A stretch of DNA of 38,552 nt from sequence record MN481366.1; one strand, given 5' to 3'. Shown one piece after another: positions 18,566 through 38,548 of this stretch (its first letter is position 1; each line of letters opens with the position of its first letter). A program made the translations under genes and the position numbers. Below the pieces are notes generated by a model, which was not told where the DNA came from, did no database searches, and was given only the letters and a program-made list of their open reading frames with translations. Source of the DNA: Escherichia phage vB_EcoP_PHB20.

Positions 18566-18591
18566 GTTATGGGTAAGAAAATCACGAAGCA

Positions 18592-18879
18592 GTGAAGAAA
18601 GTCACCAAGCCAATTACGAAAGCCGTGAAGAAAGTTACCAAGGAAGTGGCCAGTCCGATTAAACAGGTTGTAGGTGGTCTGGCTGGCGGTGCAGGTGAAG
18701 CACAGGTTGTGGAGGTCCCACAGGCTGCCACTCCTGCTGCACAGATTGGTGACATACCTGAGAAAGAGGTCTCCACCGAGGATGAAGCACAGACCGAAAG
18801 CGGACGTAAGAAAGCTCGTGCTGGCGGTAAGAAGTCCCTGAGTGTAGCTCGTAGCTCCGGTGGCGGCATCAATATTTAA
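18592..18879 (+). CDS. 7.3: gp7.3 (tail-associated), 5' end out of frame with the RBS-proximal ATG at 18569
   Basis: Body VKKVTKPITKAVKKVTKEVASPIKQVVGG...SLSVARSSGGGINI matches T7 gp7.3; ATG 18569 after aaggaggtataagtt opens MGKKITKQ then TGA at 18593-18595; body continues in the other frame from GTG 18592. Confidence 0.7.
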   Translation: MKKVTKPITKAVKKVTKEVASPIKQVVGGLAGGAGEAQVVEVPQAATPAAQIGDIPEKEVSTEDEAQTESGRKKARAGGKKSLSVARSSGGGINI

Positions 18880-18893
18880 ACAGGAGGTGACAC

Positions 18894-32200: not shown

Positions 32201-33200
32201 TAAGGTGCTGAACGGAACCACTAACTACCTTCTGGACGCTGCGCGTCAAGGTATGCTTGGGGACGTTATTAGTGCCACCTTAACAGGTAAGACTACCCGC
32301 TGGGAGAAAGAGGGATTCCTTCGGGGTGCCTCCATAACTCCTGAGCAGATGGCTGGCATCAAGTCTCTCATCAAGGAACACATGGTACGTGGTGAGGACG
32401 GGAAGTTTACCGTTAAGGACAAGCAAGCGTTCTCTATGGACCCGCGTGCTATGGACTTATGGCGACTGGCTGACAAGGTGGCTGATGGGGCAATGTTGCG
32501 TCCGCATAAGGTGTCCTTACAGGATTCCCATGCGTTCGGAGCATTAGGTAAGATGGTGATGCAGTTTAAGTCTTTCACCATTAAATCCCTTAACTCTAAG
32601 TTCATTCGAACCTTCTATGATGGGTACAAGAACAACCGAGCGATTGACGCTGCGCTGACTGGTATCATCTCTATGGGTCTCGCTGGTGGTTACTACGCTA
32701 TGGCTGCACACGTCAAAGCGTATGGGATGCCTAAGGAGCAACGTAAAGAATACTTGGAGCGAGCACTGGACCCAACCATGATTGCCCACGCTTCGTTGTC
32801 TCGTAGTTCTCAATTAGGTGCTCCTTTGGCTATGGCTGACCTAGTGGGTGGTGTCTTAGGGGTCGAGTCCTCCAAGATGGTTCGCTCCACGATTCTACCT
32901 AAGGACACCATGAAGGAACGTGACCCAAACAAACCGTACACCTCTAGAGAGGTAATGGGAGCTATGGGTTCGAGCCTTCTGGAGCAGATGCCTTCGGCTG
33001 GCTTTGTGGCTAACGTTGGGGCCTCCCTAATGAACGCTGCTGGTGTGGTTAACTCACCTAACAAAGCAACCGAGCAGGACTTCATGACTGGCTTAATGAA
33101 CTCTACCAAAGAGTTAGTGCCTAACGACCCTCTTACTCAACAGCTTGTGGTTAAGATTTATGAGGCCAATGGTGTTAACTTGAAGGAGCGTCGGAAATAA
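29244..33200 (+). CDS. 16: Internal virion protein gp16 with N-terminal lytic transglycosylase domain
   Basis: 1318 aa; N-terminal SLT-like motif WTESRFVPTAKSKTGPLGMMQF; same length as T7 gp16. Confidence 0.95.
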   Translation: MDKYDKNVPSEYDGLFQKAADANGVSYDLLRKVAWTESRFVPTAKSKTGPLGMMQFTKATAKAMGLRVTDGPDDDRLNPELAINTAAKHLAGLVSKFDGDELKAALAYNQGEGRLGNPQLEAYSKGDFASISEEGRNYMRNLLDVARSPMAGQLETFGGITPKGKGIPAEVGLAGIGHSQKVTQELPESTSFDVKGIEQEAPEKPFAKDFWETHGETLDEYNKRSTFFGFKDATKAELSNSVAGMAFRAGRLDNGFDVFKDTITPTRWNSHIWTPEELEKIRTEVKNPAYINVVTGGSPENLDDLIKLANENFENDSRAAEAGLGAKLSAGVIGAGVDPLSYVPMVGVTGKGFKLVNKALVVGAESAALNVASEGLRTSVAGGDAHYSEAALSGFLFGASMSAISDAVAAGLKRSKPEAEFDNEFIGPMMRMEARETARNANSADLSRMNTENMKFEGEHNGIPYSDLPTEKGAVVLHDGSVISASNPINPKTLQEFSEVDPEKAARGINLAGFTEIGLKTLGSDDADIRRVAIDLVRSPTGMQSGSSGKFGATASDIHERLHGTDQRTYNDLYKAMSDAMKDPEFSTGGAKMSREEARYTIYRRAALAIERTELQSALTRSERTVMDIIKRHFDTKRELMENPAIFGNTKAVSIFPESRHKGTYVPHVYCRHAKALMIQRYGAEGLQEGIARSWMNSYVSRPEVKARVDEMLKELHGVKEVTPEMVEKYAMDKAYGISHSDQFTNSSIIEENIEGLAGIENNSFLEARNLFDSDLSITMPDGQQFSVNDLRDFDMFRIMPAYDRRVNGDIAIMGSTGKTTKELKDEISALKAKAEGDGKKTGEVHALMDTVKILTGRARRNQDTVWETSMRAINDLGFFAKNAYMGAQNLTEIAGMFATGNVRALGHGIPILRDTLYKSKPVSAKELKELHASLFGKEVDQLIRPKRADIVQRLREATDTGPAVANIVGTLKYSTQELAARSPWTKVLNGTTNYLLDAARQGMLGDVISATLTGKTTRWEKEGFLRGASITPEQMAGIKSLIKEHMVRGEDGKFTVKDKQAFSMDPRAMDLWRLADKVADGAMLRPHKVSLQDSHAFGALGKMVMQFKSFTIKSLNSKFIRTFYDGYKNNRAIDAALTGIISMGLAGGYYAMAAHVKAYGMPKEQRKEYLERALDPTMIAHASLSRSSQLGAPLAMADLVGGVLGVESSKMVRSTILPKDTMKERDPNKPYTSREVMGAMGSSLLEQMPSAGFVANVGASLMNAAGVVNSPNKATEQDFMTGLMNSTKELVPNDPLTQQLVVKIYEANGVNLKERRK

Positions 33201-33220
33201 TACGACTCACTATAGGGAGA
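33198..33220 (+). promoter_or_regulatory. T7 RNAP promoter phi17
   Basis: taatacgactcactatagggaga overlapping the gene 16 stop; +1 G at 33215. Confidence 0.85.
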
Positions 33221-33272
33221 GGTGAAAGAATCTTCTCCCTGTAGTCTCTTAGATTTACTTTAAGGAGGTCAA

Positions 33273-35237
33273 ATGGCTAACGTAATTAAAACCGTTTTGA
33301 CTTACCAGTTAGATGGCTCCACTCGTGATTTTAATATCCCGTTTGAGTATCTAGCCCGTAAGTTCGTAGTGGTAACTCTTATTGGTGTAGACCGTAAGGT
33401 CCTTACGCTTAATACAGACTATCGCTTTGCTACACGTACTACCATCTCACTGACTAAGGCTTGGGGTCCATCCGATGGCTACACGACCATTGTGTTACGC
33501 CGAGTAACCTCCACGACCGACCGCTTGGTTGACTTTACGGACGGCTCAATCCTCCGTGCGTATGACCTTAACGTTGCTCAGATTCAAACGATGCACGTAG
33601 CGGAGGAGGCGCGCGACCTGACTGCTGATACAATCGGTGTCAATAATGACGGTCACTTGGATGCCCGTGGTCGTAAGATTGTTAACTTGGCGTATGCCAC
33701 AGGTGACTATGATGCCGTCCCTTTAAAGCAGGTTAAAGAGCGTGAAACCTCTGCGTGGAATGCCGCAACAAAAGCTAACGAACACGCTGACCGTTCTAAT
33801 AGGGAAGCAAACCGTTCCCGTGATGAGGCCAATCGCGCTCAACGTGAAGCTGACCGCTCAACGCAACAGGCAGATGTCTCTAAGCAACAGGCAGTTGAGT
33901 CCAAGAAGCAAGCTGACCGCTCAGACGCTGAGGCTGACAGAGCTAAAGGTTATGTTGATAGCATGATCGCAAGTGTCGCTGAGGCCGAGAAGCAAGCTGA
34001 CCGTGCCGACTCTGAGGCAAATCGTGCCCGTGATGAGGCCGATCGTGCTGCCGGAGAAGTGACTAAAGCTGCTGCTGAGGTTGCCAAGGCTGCTGCACAT
34101 GTTGAGACCGCTAAGGGACATGCTGATAGGGCTAACACTGAGGCAAACCGCTCCAAAGGTGAGGCTGACCGTGCTAAGTCTGAGGCAGACAAGCTGGGGA
34201 ATATGAACAGCTTAGCTGGGGCTATTGACAGGGTTGAGGATCTTGATGTTTACTTCAAGCGCAAGGTGTCAGGTAAGGACTTTACGTTGCGGAATGATGC
34301 AAAGGGCGCTGATACTAAACCAGTTGAATTAGTATGGACCCAGTGGCGTGGAGAGGGAAGCAAGGAGACCGTATGGGAACAGTGGATTCAGGCTGGTCCA
34401 AAACGCATGGACTACTATACGTTCATCAATACAGACCCTGCCACATGGCCTGACGGACGATCTAATAGTAAAGGAAAACACACATTTTTTGGAGATGTTT
34501 TATTGGCTGGTGGGAACGTGGAAATGCACGGCAACCTTAAGGTTAATGCAGTCGAGTCTAAAAATACCGTTTCCCTTACAAATGAGGGTGCCAGCTTTAG
34601 GGCAAAAACACAAGGCGGCGGATGGAGCCAGTGGACAGGAAGTCTATCTCCAGACGTGCAGCACGATATTGCAGGGCAGGGGGATATAAACTATCTCCTT
34701 GAGCGAGCGACGATTTGGGGTAAAGAGCACCTGTATGCTAAGTGCTTATACAACAATGGAACAGGCGTTAACTTCTTTATCAGACATTATCTCCGTGGGA
34801 CTCACTTCGACTACAGGAGCGATGGTACTCTTCTCAGCTCGACTGGTTGGTATATTCCACCAGATGGCAACCTGTACATCAAAAAGTACAACGAGTATAT
34901 TGATGCGTGGGTCAACAAACGCCTTGATGAACACGCCTATAACAAAAGTACCGCCGATGGTCTCTATATCCGCAAGAATGCTGGGTGGAGTGAAGTGTGG
35001 AAAGGAAGAGTTGGTGGTGGTGTATCCGTATCTCTATCTCAAGATGTTCGTTGGAGAACCATCTGGATTCAGACCAACGATCACTGGAACCCGATAGAGA
35101 TTGGGGACGATGGTGCCTACTTTCTTTCCTCTATGGGTGGGTGGATTACATTCACTATCTCCAACGGCGGGAGAACCTTCAAGAATGACAGAGATGAGAA
35201 ATCTGTACCAACTAGCATTCTGGTGCGTAACAACTAA
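33273..35237 (+). CDS. 17: Tail fiber protein gp17, long mosaic form (654 aa)
   Basis: N-terminal ~150 aa MANVIKTVLTYQLDGSTRDFNIPFEYLARKFVVVTLIGVDRK... is T7-like; then a repetitive EANRxRDEADRA coiled-coil; C-terminal ~300 aa differs from T7 except the last ~60 aa. Confidence 0.95.
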   Translation: MANVIKTVLTYQLDGSTRDFNIPFEYLARKFVVVTLIGVDRKVLTLNTDYRFATRTTISLTKAWGPSDGYTTIVLRRVTSTTDRLVDFTDGSILRAYDLNVAQIQTMHVAEEARDLTADTIGVNNDGHLDARGRKIVNLAYATGDYDAVPLKQVKERETSAWNAATKANEHADRSNREANRSRDEANRAQREADRSTQQADVSKQQAVESKKQADRSDAEADRAKGYVDSMIASVAEAEKQADRADSEANRARDEADRAAGEVTKAAAEVAKAAAHVETAKGHADRANTEANRSKGEADRAKSEADKLGNMNSLAGAIDRVEDLDVYFKRKVSGKDFTLRNDAKGADTKPVELVWTQWRGEGSKETVWEQWIQAGPKRMDYYTFINTDPATWPDGRSNSKGKHTFFGDVLLAGGNVEMHGNLKVNAVESKNTVSLTNEGASFRAKTQGGGWSQWTGSLSPDVQHDIAGQGDINYLLERATIWGKEHLYAKCLYNNGTGVNFFIRHYLRGTHFDYRSDGTLLSSTGWYIPPDGNLYIKKYNEYIDAWVNKRLDEHAYNKSTADGLYIRKNAGWSEVWKGRVGGGVSVSLSQDVRWRTIWIQTNDHWNPIEIGDDGAYFLSSMGGWITFTISNGGRTFKNDRDEKSVPTSILVRNN

Positions 35238-35284
35238 GGGATGACCAATAGTCCACGGATGGACTCTTTGAGGGAGGACGCTAC

Positions 35285-35488
35285 ATGTTGTCTTTAGATT
35301 TTAATAATGAGTTAGTCAAGGCCGCACCTATTGTTGGCACTGGTGTGGCTGATGGCGCTGCGAGGCTTTTCTTCGGTCTGAGTCTTAATGAGTGGTTCTA
35401 CGTTGCCGCTATGGCCTACACAGTGGTTCAGATTGGTGCCAAGGTAGTCGATAAGATGATTGACTGGAAGAAAGCCAATAAGGAGTAA
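35285..35488 (+). CDS. 17.5: Holin (gp17.5)
   Basis: 67 aa with one hydrophobic segment and charged C-terminus; near-identical to T7 gp17.5 as recalled. Confidence 0.9.
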   Translation: MLSLDFNNELVKAAPIVGTGVADGAARLFFGLSLNEWFYVAAMAYTVVQIGAKVVDKMIDWKKANKE

Positions 35489-35491
35489 TAT

Positions 35492-35761
35492 ATGGAAAAA
35501 GATAAGAGCCTCATTACGTTCTTAGAGATGTTGGACACTGCGATGGCTCAGCGTATGCTTGCGGACCTTTCGGACCCTGAGCGGCGCTCTCCACAACTCT
35601 ATAACGCCATTAACAAACTGTTAGACCGTCACAAGTTCCAGATTGGTAAGTTGCAGCCGGATGTTCACATCTTGGGTGGCCTTGCTGGTGCTCTTGAAGA
35701 GTACAAAGAGAAAGTCGGTGAGAACGGTCTTACGGATGACGATATTTATACTTTACAGTGA
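35492..35761 (+). CDS. 18: Terminase small subunit (gp18)
   Basis: 89 aa MEKDKSLITFLEMLDTAMAQRMLADLSDPERRSPQLYNAINKLLDRHKFQIGKL...; T7 gp18-like. Confidence 0.9.
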   Translation: MEKDKSLITFLEMLDTAMAQRMLADLSDPERRSPQLYNAINKLLDRHKFQIGKLQPDVHILGGLAGALEEYKEKVGENGLTDDDIYTLQ

Positions 35762-38104: not shown

Positions 38105-38548
38105 ATGATAAACAAGAAGAAGTATGTTGTTGATAAGGAGACTGGTTGCTGGAACTTTAAGGGATGTAAGACGAAGACTGGTTATGGTCGTATCCGTGTG
38201 AATGGTGTCCATTGGATGGCCCACAGGTATTCCCTGAGTTGTCATCTAGGCAGACCGATAGCTGACGGAATGGTTGTGATGCACCTGTGTGATAACCCTT
38301 CGTGTGTTAACCCTGAGCACCTTAAGGAAGGGACCCAGAAGGAAAACATAGAGGACTGCATCTCAAAGGGTCGCGCAACTAAGGCCACAGGTAAACGTGA
38401 TGCGTCGAAGAGAGACCCTAGCGAGGAACGTAAGGCTATAGTGATTCGTAGATACCATAAAGGCTGGAACGCAACGTCCATAGCGAGATACCATAAGCTC
38501 TCTGTGGCGTGGGTCAAGAGGGTCATTGAGGAGTACCTAAGTGATTGA
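38105..38548 (+). CDS. HNH-family homing endonuclease-like protein (147 aa), not at this position in T7
   Basis: Motif ETGCWNFKG..GYGRIRVNGVHWMAHR...VVMHLCDNPSCVNPEHLKEGTQKEN typical of phage HNH endonucleases, plus C-terminal HTH-like AIVIRRYHKGWNATSIARYHKLSVAWVKRV; SD taaggaggtaatATG; rare AGA/AGG/ATA/CTA codons. Confidence 0.85.
   Translation: MINKKKYVVDKETGCWNFKGCKTKTGYGRIRVNGVHWMAHRYSLSCHLGRPIADGMVVMHLCDNPSCVNPEHLKEGTQKENIEDCISKGRATKATGKRDASKRDPSEERKAIVIRRYHKGWNATSIARYHKLSVAWVKRVIEEYLSD

Follow-up and report, generated by a model that had tools for sequence, protein, structure and literature searches.

Mosaic structure of the tail fiber gene of Escherichia phage vB_EcoP_PHB20: a T7-type N-terminus joined to a Berlinvirus-type fiber

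Results and Discussion

Gene 17 and its genomic setting

The window analyzed here, a stretch of 38,552 nucleotides from Escherichia phage vB_EcoP_PHB20 (MN481366.1), represents a Teseptimavirus approximately 92% identical to phage T7, and only six changes separate the whole stretch from the record of phage vB_EcoP_IME390 (MH779619/NC_048082). Outside gene 17, a P19S substitution in gp12 and a putative frameshift in gene 7.3 (at 18588) were noted. Its gene 17 encodes a tail fiber protein (Table 1) of 654 aa compared to 553 aa in T7, as given in the initial annotation and confirmed by the open reading frame. The corresponding ORF in MH779619 is of equal length and 99.9% identical at the nucleotide level, with two amino acids differing; its product was annotated in GenBank as a tail fiber protein, which is correct. 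Moreover, phrog_4242 matched the gene 17 product along its full length (E = 6e-239). The mosaic structure of the IME390 fiber was not discussed in the literature found mentioning this phage.

Gene 17 is located between gene 16 and the holin gene 17.5 (35285–35488; start 48 nt past the gene 17 stop codon) and lies behind the phi17 promoter, an arrangement syntenic with T7. This promoter has been annotated at the same position in T7, 13a, and BA14. Sigma-70-like promoter and terminator matches in the region 33100–35600 were no more frequent than expected by chance. ORFs of 50–132 aa located within gene 17 in alternative frames or in antisense were rejected as products of the shaft's repetitive, GC-rich composition, since no homology or signal spoke for them. 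Neither a tfa gene directly downstream nor a C-terminal chaperone domain (Mu/lambda Tfa type, as in LL2 and EmilieLinder) was found, and Pfam and PHROGs revealed no extra domain; phage LL2 differs in possessing the tfa gene. A catalytic beta-helix or depolymerase domain, as known from enzymatic Autographiviridae tailspikes (K1F, Klebsiella phages), was likewise not detected (no enzyme domain in Pfam), and the tailspike/depolymerase chains 8X8M and 9M4C matched the N-terminal ~150 aa only.

Table 1. Features of the gene 17 region of phage vB_EcoP_PHB20 (positions in the window; aa, residues of the gene 17 product).
Feature	Position	Strand	Basis or closest relative
phi17 class III T7 RNA-polymerase promoter, drives gene 17	33198–33220	+	perfect 23/23 match to TAATACGACTCACTATAGGGAGA
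Gene 17, tail fiber protein, 654 aa	33273–35237	+	ORF list; counterpart AYD82956.1 in MH779619
N1 (aa 1–124), T7-type part of tail-adaptor domain	33273–33644	+	96% aa identity to T7, 70% to Berlinviruses
5' recombination junction	33644–33647	+	last T7-type site 33644; Berlinvirus-type run starts at 33647
N2 (aa 125–161), Berlinvirus-type end of adaptor	33645–33755	+	identity per block
Shaft (aa 162–308), predicted trimeric coiled coil, 21 heptads	33756–34196	+	lag-7 autocorrelation
Neck (aa 309–333), GNMNSLAGAIDRVEDLDVYFKRKV	34197–34271	+	conserved in T7-type (48%) and Berlinvirus-type fibers
midA (aa 334–394)	34272–34454	+	closest S523, 89%
midB (aa 395–474)	34455–34694	+	closest CICC 80001, 86%
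midC (aa 475–530)	34695–34862	+	closest SYGE1 (91%) and BA14 (89%); EG1 14%
Apex and alpha-helical linker (aa 531–563)	34863–34961	+	91% identical to EG1
Tip domain (aa 564–654), homolog of T7 receptor-binding tip	34962–35234	+	phmmer, hhalign
Codons 642–643 (E, K), last tip loop	35196–35201	+	K, N in the IME390 record
3' recombination junction, inside holin gene 17.5	35408–35410	+	Berlinvirus-type sites mostly to 35407, T7-type from 35410

The adaptor and the 5' junction

The N-terminal part of the protein was assigned to the Pfam family PF03906 (Phage_T7_tail; residues 1–155, E = 1.2e-64, 217 bits against a cutoff of 25.2), and PDB entries 7BOZ and 8E4G matched residues 1–124 at an identity of at least 96%. 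The T7-like N-terminus described previously was thus corroborated, but the T7-type stretch ends at residue 124 (nt 33644) instead of extending to about residue 150. Among the 80 informative sites in N1, 71 were T7-type, two Berlinvirus-type, and seven neither. Left of nt 33645, the ratio of T7-type to Berlinvirus-type sites was 71/2, turning to 4/60 on its right (Fisher p = 3e-31). The junction falls within the conserved GVNNDGHLDARGR stretch, inside the adaptor domain, and the N2 segment following it is 97% identical to EG1, 95% to Carena, FE44, and PhiV-1, and 62% to T7.

The Berlinvirus-type version of residues 1–124 is not present: the gp17 proteins of the Berlinviruses FE44, Carena, BA14, PhiV-1, ETEP21B, and Yep-phi are only 70% identical to the phage studied here in N1. 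Since N1 is T7-type, not Berlinvirus-type, the fiber is a chimera rather than an ordinary representative of the Berlinvirus-type group. The tail proteins gp11 and gp12, onto which the adaptor docks, are also T7-type (95.9% and 94.0% identity to T7, respectively, compared to 71% and 66% to FE44), and the 124 retained residues would keep the fiber compatible with these two proteins.

The shaft

The shaft is built from an unbroken series of 21 heptads following the pattern xxEA(D/N)R(S/A), with a lag-7 identity of 0.41 (z = 11.3 vs. shuffled sequences). The repeats of the EANRxRDEADRA type reported initially are therefore real at the protein level, but they do not constitute a DNA array: Tandem Repeats Finder detected none in 33600–34400, even at a score of 30, and the DNA repeats of the shaft comprise only three dispersed families (39–57 nt, 61–85% identity, spacing in multiples of 21 nt). 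Identity values for the shaft amounted to 99% for EG1, 86–91% for the Berlinviruses, 83% for Sxt1, and only 27% for T7, to whose shaft it was aligned by hhalign with a probability of 98.4%. It exceeds the T7 shaft by six heptads (42 aa) and equals all Berlinvirus-type shafts in length. Because of this low identity to T7 and the shared length, the shaft is, as judged by sequence comparison, of the standard 21-heptad Berlinvirus type and part of an imported block, and not the expanded T7 coiled coil previously proposed.

The middle block and its codon usage

Residues 334–530 form a block for which neither phmmer nor hhalign returned a match to T7 (hhalign probabilities for the middle blocks of 0.8–4.4%). 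The pyramid domain PF20744 (gp37_trimer), a mark of T7/T3-type fibers in the strict sense (T7, 13a, T3, T7M), was recognized in T7 residues 371–464 with E = 5.9e-41 but not in the present fiber, whose residues 309–564 gave no match to any Pfam family at E ≤ 10. In a PDB profile search with the middle-block alignment, the middle positions were unmatched, and only the N-terminal, coil, and tip portions of full-length rows found counterparts. An AlphaFold2 single-chain prediction of residues 320–654 from a nine-sequence alignment reached a mean pLDDT of 42 and a pTM of 0.25, with pLDDT values below 50 throughout the middle block; the authors of the Sxt1 study likewise could not model the corresponding region as a trimer (PMC11680406). 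A word-indexed protein search with residues 310–654 matched only eight proteins, an insufficient number for a deep alignment.

The closest relative changes along the block (Table 1). Besides S523, midA is 75% identical to Carena, FE44, and Sxt1 and 72% to EG1, but only 11% to BA14 and PhiV-1; in BA14, PhiV-1, and Yep-phi both midA and midB differ from the versions described here. For midB, identity is 72% to Sxt1 and 18% to EG1 and S523, and no EG1 DNA match was obtained across 34455–34860. DNA identity to BA14 and SYGE1 at 34725–34860 reached 90–92%. Judging from the best matches (S523, CICC 80001, and SYGE1/BA14), the middle block itself is shuffled in sub-blocks. Furthermore, midA shares 40% identity with the P0010 fiber, which features a Gp34_trimer domain; a relation to the T4 Gp34 trimerization domain based on this identity is to be regarded as a lead, not a finding.

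The deviating codon texture attributed to the distal part was substantiated. The synonymous-codon log-likelihood of the distal block (34230–34964) under the genome's own usage is low (z = −2.7), none of 3000 same-size gene segments scored below it, and the codons aca, gga, ata, agg, and aaa account for 11.8% of its codons as compared to 4.0% (z = 5.5). Codon usage is normal in the N-terminus and shaft, the shift being confined to the distal block.

The linker and tip

The span from the DGN apex motif to VWxG measures 48 aa in this phage and likewise in EG1; it is shorter in T7 (35 aa) and longer in Berlinvirus-type fibers (61 aa). Downstream, residues 564–653 matched the beta-sandwich tip of T7 gp17 (PDB 4A0T, residues 465–553) with E = 1.2e-23 in phmmer, while hhalign of the tip yielded a probability of 99.8% (E = 7e-30). 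Tip identity amounts to 88% for EG1, 82% for Carena, 70% for Sxt1, and 48% for T7, with D641 and N602 corresponding to the conserved T7 residues D540 and N501. Homology with T7 suggests that those loops of the tip that face downward bind the LPS core and thereby start reversible adsorption.

These results modify the view that the distal ~300 aa differ from T7 except for the last ~60 aa. Residues 334–530 are indeed different, but the tip is homologous, and the homologous C-terminus comprises ~91 aa (residues 564–654, at the 48% identity given above). Likewise, the proposed swap of the receptor-binding part does not describe the situation properly: the tip, which in T7 was experimentally shown to bind the receptor, remains homologous, and the non-homologous part is the pyramid/middle region. 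Colinear alignment with T7 gp17 at high identity over the full length was not observed, with residues 334–530 unmatched and the tip at 48%. The likenesses to T7 gp17, whose structures cover the tip and pyramid (PDB 4A0T/4A0U) and the N-terminus (7BOZ, 7EY9), include the adaptor, the heptad coiled-coil shaft, the neck motif, the DGN apex motif, the helical linker, and the homologous tip. The fiber studied here is 101 aa longer, with the shaft contributing +42 aa and the middle together with the linker +60 aa.

Residues 642/643 align with S541/R542 of T7, the tip "hook" residues for which T7 data are available (PMC8043750), and with R655/S656 of Sxt1. The basic tip residue of EG1 is in the same register as in this phage (E650/R651), and that of Sxt1, R655, corresponds to position 642. 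As a side observation, both gene 17 coding differences from the IME390 record hit these hook positions (E642/K643 here, K642/N643 in IME390).

The 3' junction and the extent of the import

At 35220–35400, identity to T7 is 61–81%, rising to 94–98% beyond. Between the two junctions lies an imported block of ~1.76 kb. It takes in all of gene 17 from codon 125 onward, the intergenic region, and ~41 codons at the start of gene 17.5, and its flanks are T7-like with 92–99% identity. The claim of a mosaic gene was upheld, but the exchanged unit is not a distal receptor-binding module alone, since it runs from residue 125 into the holin gene. Horizontal exchange, as originally suspected, is strongly supported by the sharp junctions, the T7-like flanks, and the distal codon shift.

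From residue 125 to its end, the protein is colinear with the fibers of FE44, Carena, BA14, and Sxt1. Toward FE44, Carena, and Sxt1, the sole large gap is a 13-aa linker deletion, common to EG1; divergence with gaps in part of the middle block additionally sets BA14 apart, and likewise EG1. FE44 and Carena share 70–95% identity per block in this range. The features of the Berlinvirus-type fiber (21-heptad shaft, midA-midB-midC, long helical linker, and tip) are all present, the 13-aa shorter linker being the exception. The Berlinvirus backbone is different, with DNA identities of ~60–75% in the gene 17 flanks.

The Teseptimavirus EG1 (gp17, ATW57755.1) also carries a T7-type N1 (95%), and its N2 and shaft are 97–99% identical to those described here; its midB and midC (counterparts of residues 395–530) are unrelated (14–18% identity). 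Across the shaft, EG1 reaches 99–100% identity, yet gene 16 of EG1 is of a different type and only 50–74% identical, showing that the module moves between genomes. The Teetrevirus Sxt1 (Sekstaphage-1; fiber WNV46661.1) features a Berlinvirus-type fiber in a non-Berlinvirus genome, with a 21-heptad shaft, the same middle block (72–82%), a similar tip, and a linker that is 13 aa longer. In Sxt1, the whole fiber gene including its N-terminus as well as genes 15 and 16 differ from T3, whereas N1 is T7-type in the phage studied here. The Sxt1 fiber was interpreted as resulting from recombination, leading to an extended fiber and broader host range (PMC11680406).

Origin of the chimeric fiber

Taken together, gene 17 most probably encodes a homotrimeric lateral tail fiber and arose when a T7-type (Teseptimavirus) genome underwent homologous recombination with a Berlinvirus-type fiber gene, a reading to which we assign a probability of about 0.85. 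On this reading, the import supplied the adaptor end, the 21-heptad shaft, the neck, the beta-rich middle (pyramid region), the helical linker, and the T7-like beta-sandwich tip, bringing along the intergenic region and the 5' portion of the holin gene. The imported part has itself been reshuffled at the sub-domain scale among related phages. At the DNA level, the closest known Berlinviruses are only ~70–96% identical (84–96% in the shaft and 70–84% in the distal part), indicating that the exchange was not recent or that it involved unsampled phages.

Related fibers in several Teseptimaviruses (EG1, SYGE1, CICC 80001) imply that the fiber type may be an old polymorphism of the genus instead of a single import. 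The Berlinvirus-type fiber would then be an ancient Teseptimavirus allele, with either the T7-type N-terminus or the T7/T3-type fiber itself arriving later in some lineages. This scenario, which we consider improbable, is in line with the occurrence of the fiber type in at least four Teseptimaviruses (IME390 in addition to the three named) and one Teetrevirus (Sxt1), and with the sampled Berlinviruses not being close DNA donors for the distal part. On the other hand, the shaft DNA reaches 84–96% identity to Berlinviruses, among the sampled members of which the fiber type is usual, and the block ends inside gene 17.5 with Berlinvirus-type sites upstream of the junction.

Considerably less probable is an enlargement of T7's own coiled coil by local repeat amplification, with only the distal ~300 aa being foreign. 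The six additional heptads, and the dispersed repeats of 39–57 nt, would fit an ancient internal duplication in the history of the shaft. However, the shaft is 27% identical to that of T7 compared to 86–99% for the Berlinviruses and EG1, all of them having exactly 21 heptads, and no Carena/FE44 breakpoint exists where the shaft meets the distal part. The switch of informative sites at residue 125, upstream of the shaft, together with these block identities effectively refutes this possibility. Finally, in-place divergence from a T7-like ancestor without any transfer, driven by strong diversifying selection on the receptor-binding protein, is very unlikely, as the rapid evolution of such proteins and a tip of only 48% identity to T7 that nevertheless kept its fold-level homology are opposed by junctions sharp to within a few nucleotides, by divergence that also affects non-coding DNA and the holin gene, by a shaft nearly identical to that of EG1 despite its strongly differing gene 16, and by the shift in codon usage.

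Implications for host range

Recombination between the T7-type genome and the Berlinvirus-type fiber gene is a real example of module swapping, but this kind of exchange is already familiar, and the fiber type and the inference drawn from it have been published for Sxt1 and ETEP21B. T7-like phages change their target cells through tail-fiber chimeras, which engineers copy to retarget T7 or T3. The present results offer a nucleotide-resolution map of a natural graft in which the first 124 residues were kept to match gp11/gp12 and the remainder was swapped, and it shows that the middle region is exchangeable in pieces of ~60–80 residues. Such a map is useful for the design of chimeric fibers and leaves current understanding unchanged.

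With its longer shaft and linker and its non-T7 middle block, the fiber may differ in reach and possibly gain a second binding surface. Tentatively, it can be speculated that residues 334–530 contain a second, independently exchangeable receptor-binding surface whose midA, midB, and midC are combinatorially shuffled among Teseptimavirus, Teetrevirus, and Berlinvirus, with the basic residue of the tip hook toggling between positions 642 and 643 by point mutation. If this applied, two separately evolving sites on one fiber would set the host range, and the block combination in this phage would be unique among sequenced phages.

The initial prediction that the host range departs from that of T7 is plausible by analogy. 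Sxt1 and ETEP21B, which possess the same fiber type, infect O-antigen-bearing or ECOR strains refractory to T7 (PMC11680406, PMC11267873), and the gp17 of the Berlinvirus ETEP21B was modelled with four domains and has the LPS core as its receptor (PMC11267873). BL21, the strain used to isolate IME390, and MG1655, which IME390 lyses, are hosts of T7 as well.

The Tail Fiber Gene and Its Recombination Junctions

The mosaic structure of gene 17, which is already annotated in GenBank as encoding the tail fiber, is a real feature of the analyzed genome. The length of its product gp17 given in the initial annotation (654 aa, compared to 553 aa for T7 gp17) was confirmed, and outside gene 17, the window shares approximately 92% DNA identity with T7. 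Informative sites were defined as positions at which T7 and phage 13a agree and at least three out of four Berlinviruses differ. Left of nt 33645, 71 T7-type versus 2 Berlinvirus-type sites were counted, and to the right, 4 versus 60 (Fisher p = 3e-31). Berlinvirus-type sites run past the gene 17 stop codon, through the intergenic region, and into the first ~41 codons of the holin gene 17.5. With switch points at 33645 and 35408, the replaced segment therefore amounts to approximately 1.76 kb. The horizontal exchange proposed previously is borne out by this site switch; however, the exchanged unit is not limited to a distal receptor-binding module, because the segment includes the shaft, which, judged from its sequence, came in with the imported block.

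The sole Pfam match in gp17 was the T7 tail-fiber N-terminal domain (aa 1-155, E = 1e-64), and a PDB sequence search matched solved T7 gp17 structures to aa 1-206 and, weakly, to aa 251-333. The N-terminus had been described as T7-like, which holds for its start (block N1), but not beyond approximately aa 118-125, from where it is of the Berlinvirus type. From this region to the C-terminus, gp17 aligns colinearly with Berlinvirus fibers of 655-666 aa, as deduced from a protein alignment of T7, EG1, Carena, FE44, and BA14. Colinear high identity to T7 gp17 over the full length was not seen, with values dropping to 27% (shaft), 18% (linker), and 48% (tip). The 5' junction stretch is the part of gene 17 most conserved between both fiber types (80-86% DNA identity), and the junction presumably lies here because homologous recombination is easiest in such a stretch. 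Since gp11 and gp12 of the window are 95.9% and 94.0% identical to those of T7, compared to 71% and 66% for FE44, the T7-type N1 may have been retained because the gp11/gp12 tail is T7-like.

For phage Sxt1, a 2024 study (PMC11680406) described this fiber type, noted its greater length, and traced it to acquisition from Berlinvirus by a genome outside that genus; the four-domain architecture was described in the same year for ETEP21B (PMC11267873). Fiber module exchange in Teseptimavirus has been documented in the BASEL collection papers. The present analysis adds the precise junction positions in this phage, the shuffling of sub-blocks inside the gp17 middle region, the intermediate linker length common to the window and EG1, and the polymorphism at the tip hook residues.

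Features of the gene 17 locus and blocks of gp17 (identities at the amino acid level)
Feature	Position	Strand	Description	Highest identity	Lowest identity
phi17 promoter	33198-33220	+	T7 type, perfect match, upstream of gene 17		
Gene 17 ORF	33273-35237	+	tail fiber, 654 aa		
5' junction	between 33644 and 33647	+	aa 124/125, in conserved GVNNDGHLDARGR stretch of adaptor domain		
3' junction	T7-type sites from ~35410	+	inside holin gene 17.5		
N1	aa 1-124			T7 96%	Berlinviruses 70%
N2	aa 125-161			EG1 97%; Carena, FE44, PhiV-1, S523 95%	T7 62%
Shaft	aa 162-308			EG1 99%, Carena 91%	T7 27%
midA	aa 334-394			S523 89%; Carena, FE44, Sxt1 75%; EG1 72%	BA14 11%
midB	aa 395-474			CICC 80001 86%, Sxt1 72%	EG1, S523 18%
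midC	aa 475-530			SYGE1 91%, BA14 89%	EG1 14%
Linker	aa 531-563			EG1 91%	T7 18%
Tip	aa 564-654			EG1 88%, Carena 82%	T7 48%

Nested Mosaicism Within gp17

The per-block identity comparison revealed no sequenced phage with high identity in every gp17 block. DNA identity between EG1 and the window amounts to 99-100% over 33500-34230 and to 90-94% over the tip, with no match at 34455-34860. Its gene 16 is only 50-74% identical to that of the window; the fiber match despite this divergence shows that unlike genome backbones exchange the fiber module. Counted from DGN to VWxG, the linker spans 48 aa in the window and EG1, versus 35 aa (T7) and 61 aa (Berlinvirus-type fibers).

CICC 80001 (KM242061, 58-1597), the closest genome after IME390 (94.8% identity), shares midB with the window. 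Its fiber, the gene of which is interrupted by the record start, does not have the T7-like tip and ends in a different C-terminal sequence; an additional ORF of 110 aa lies between the fiber gene and the holin gene.

The repeat motif noted in the shaft is real and represents a heptad repeat, with 21 unbroken heptads following the pattern xxEA(D/N)R(S/A) at nt 33756-34196 (lag-7 identity 0.41, z = 11.3); Berlinvirus and EG1 shafts likewise contain 21 heptads. Compared to T7, the shaft is 42 aa, exactly six heptads, longer (in the alignment, T7 residue 291 corresponds to window residue 333). The term "expanded coiled coil" is thus correct regarding length, but an expanded T7 shaft is not present, as the low T7 identity contrasts with 86-91% for Berlinviruses and an even higher value for EG1. 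A tandem array at the DNA level was not found in the shaft region; the repeats detected were limited to three dispersed families (39-57 nt, spaced by multiples of 21 nt), suggesting that heptad units were duplicated long ago in the lineage leading to this fiber type.

Profile-profile comparison of the Berlinvirus-type with the T7-type alignment yielded probabilities of 99.8% for the tip (E = 7e-30), 98.4% for the shaft, and 0.8-4.4% for the middle block (aa 334-530), so that the distal sequence is indeed unlike T7 in this middle block. T7-like sequence had been assigned to the last ~60 aa only; the C-terminal homology was confirmed, but its extent is larger, since aa 564-653 match PDB 4A0T (E = 1e-23), aligned to T7 residues 462-552. 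T7 aa 371-464 match the pyramid domain PF20744 (gp37_trimer, E = 6e-41), and window aa 309-564 gave neither a Pfam match at E <= 10 nor a PDB match by profile search. When 1.84 billion cluster representatives were scanned exhaustively with HMMER, only five clusters proved to be related to aa 334-530, and the T7 adaptor domain is present in four of these. This marks the middle block as a rare module with no solved relative, largely confined to T7-type fibers. A single-chain AlphaFold2 model of aa 320-654 reached a mean pLDDT of 42, too low for structural interpretation.

Furthermore, a differing distal codon texture had been reported, which was statistically upheld for 34230-34964: given the codon usage of the genome itself, the log-likelihood of the synonymous codons in this block was low (z = -2.7; 0 out of 3000 same-size segments of other genes were lower), and the five codons named (aca, gga, ata, agg, and aaa) accounted for 11.8% of codons versus a background of 4.0% (z = 5.5). 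Codon usage of the N-terminus and shaft was unremarkable.

A 544-aa bacterial protein, encoded on an E. coli chromosomal contig (190 kb) and probably of prophage origin, contains T4-like long-tail-fiber repeats as well as a C-terminus sharing 41% identity with the tip region, and matches phrog_4242 positions 318-627. From this architecture, the T7-type tip domain therefore occurs on non-podovirus fibers, too.

Tip Residues and Differences from IME390

Compared to the record of the Teseptimavirus IME390 (MH779619 / NC_048082; isolation host E. coli BL21), the window is circularly permuted and, across 37,686 aligned bases, deviates at six sites (five substitutions and a 1-nt deletion). The only coding differences in gene 17 affect adjacent codons (35196-35201), with E642/K643 in the window and K642/N643 in the record. 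These residues align with T7 S541/R542, Sxt1 R655/S656, and ETEP21B R643. T7 R542 is the receptor "hook", at which only R, K, and H are tolerated on BL21 and 10G, and T7 S541K confers a strong gain of function on an rfaD deletion mutant (PMC8043750). From the alignment, the window thus has its basic residue at 643, like T7 and EG1, and the record at 642, like Berlinviruses and Sxt1, a shift by one position in two genomes that are nearly identical elsewhere.

In gp12 (tail tubular protein B), P19 of the window (23546) represents the T7/FE44 consensus, and the IME390 record encodes S19. The deletion at 18588 (GG to G) causes a frameshift after codon 7 of the gene 7.3 homolog (~18569-18880), a member of the host range and adsorption protein family phrog_1320. 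Either a true mutation or an error in sequencing may underlie this deletion, and translation could restart at a GTG that follows within a few codons in the new frame. Four out of the six genome-wide differences are located in adsorption genes, representing 12.4% of the genome, which chance is unlikely to produce (binomial P ~0.003, computed after the fact). This clustering, in which the indel could be a sequencing error, suggests that host adaptation separates two stocks of this phage.

In PhiV-1 (MT542512), gp17 residues 641 and 644, within the same last tip loop, are encoded by ambiguous codons (X), which hints at a mixed population at this host-range site in another phage stock.

Proposed Function and Host Range

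By homology with T7 (structures 7BOZ and 4A0T; PMC8043750, PMC11267873), the fiber would form a homotrimer, its N-terminal domain would dock onto the gp11/gp12 tail, and, in analogy to T7, its tip loops may contact the LPS core. ETEP21B, featuring the same fiber type, requires LPS core sugars, with a 3-log drop on a waaC mutant, and also infects O-antigen-bearing strains; its pyramid region was proposed as a second binding site (PMC11267873). Within the ECOR set, Sxt1 infects a wider range of hosts than T3 or T7 do and, unlike both, adsorbs to ECOR50 (PMC11680406). In analogy to Sxt1 and ETEP21B, a host range differing from that of T7 is predicted. Growth of IME390 is documented on BL21 and MG1655 only.

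Additional Observations

A short inverted repeat, GTCCACGGATGGAC, at ~35250-35266, just 3' of the gene 17 stop codon, probably forms an RNA hairpin. It is kept in T7, 13a, and EG1, and as GACCACGGATGGTC in Berlinviruses, despite divergent surrounding intergenic sequence. After the terminase gene, where T7 is not known to carry a gene, a 147-aa ORF is located (38105-38548). It is annotated as hypothetical in IME390, and its cysteine/histidine pattern and NPEHL motif look like those of an HNH homing endonuclease.
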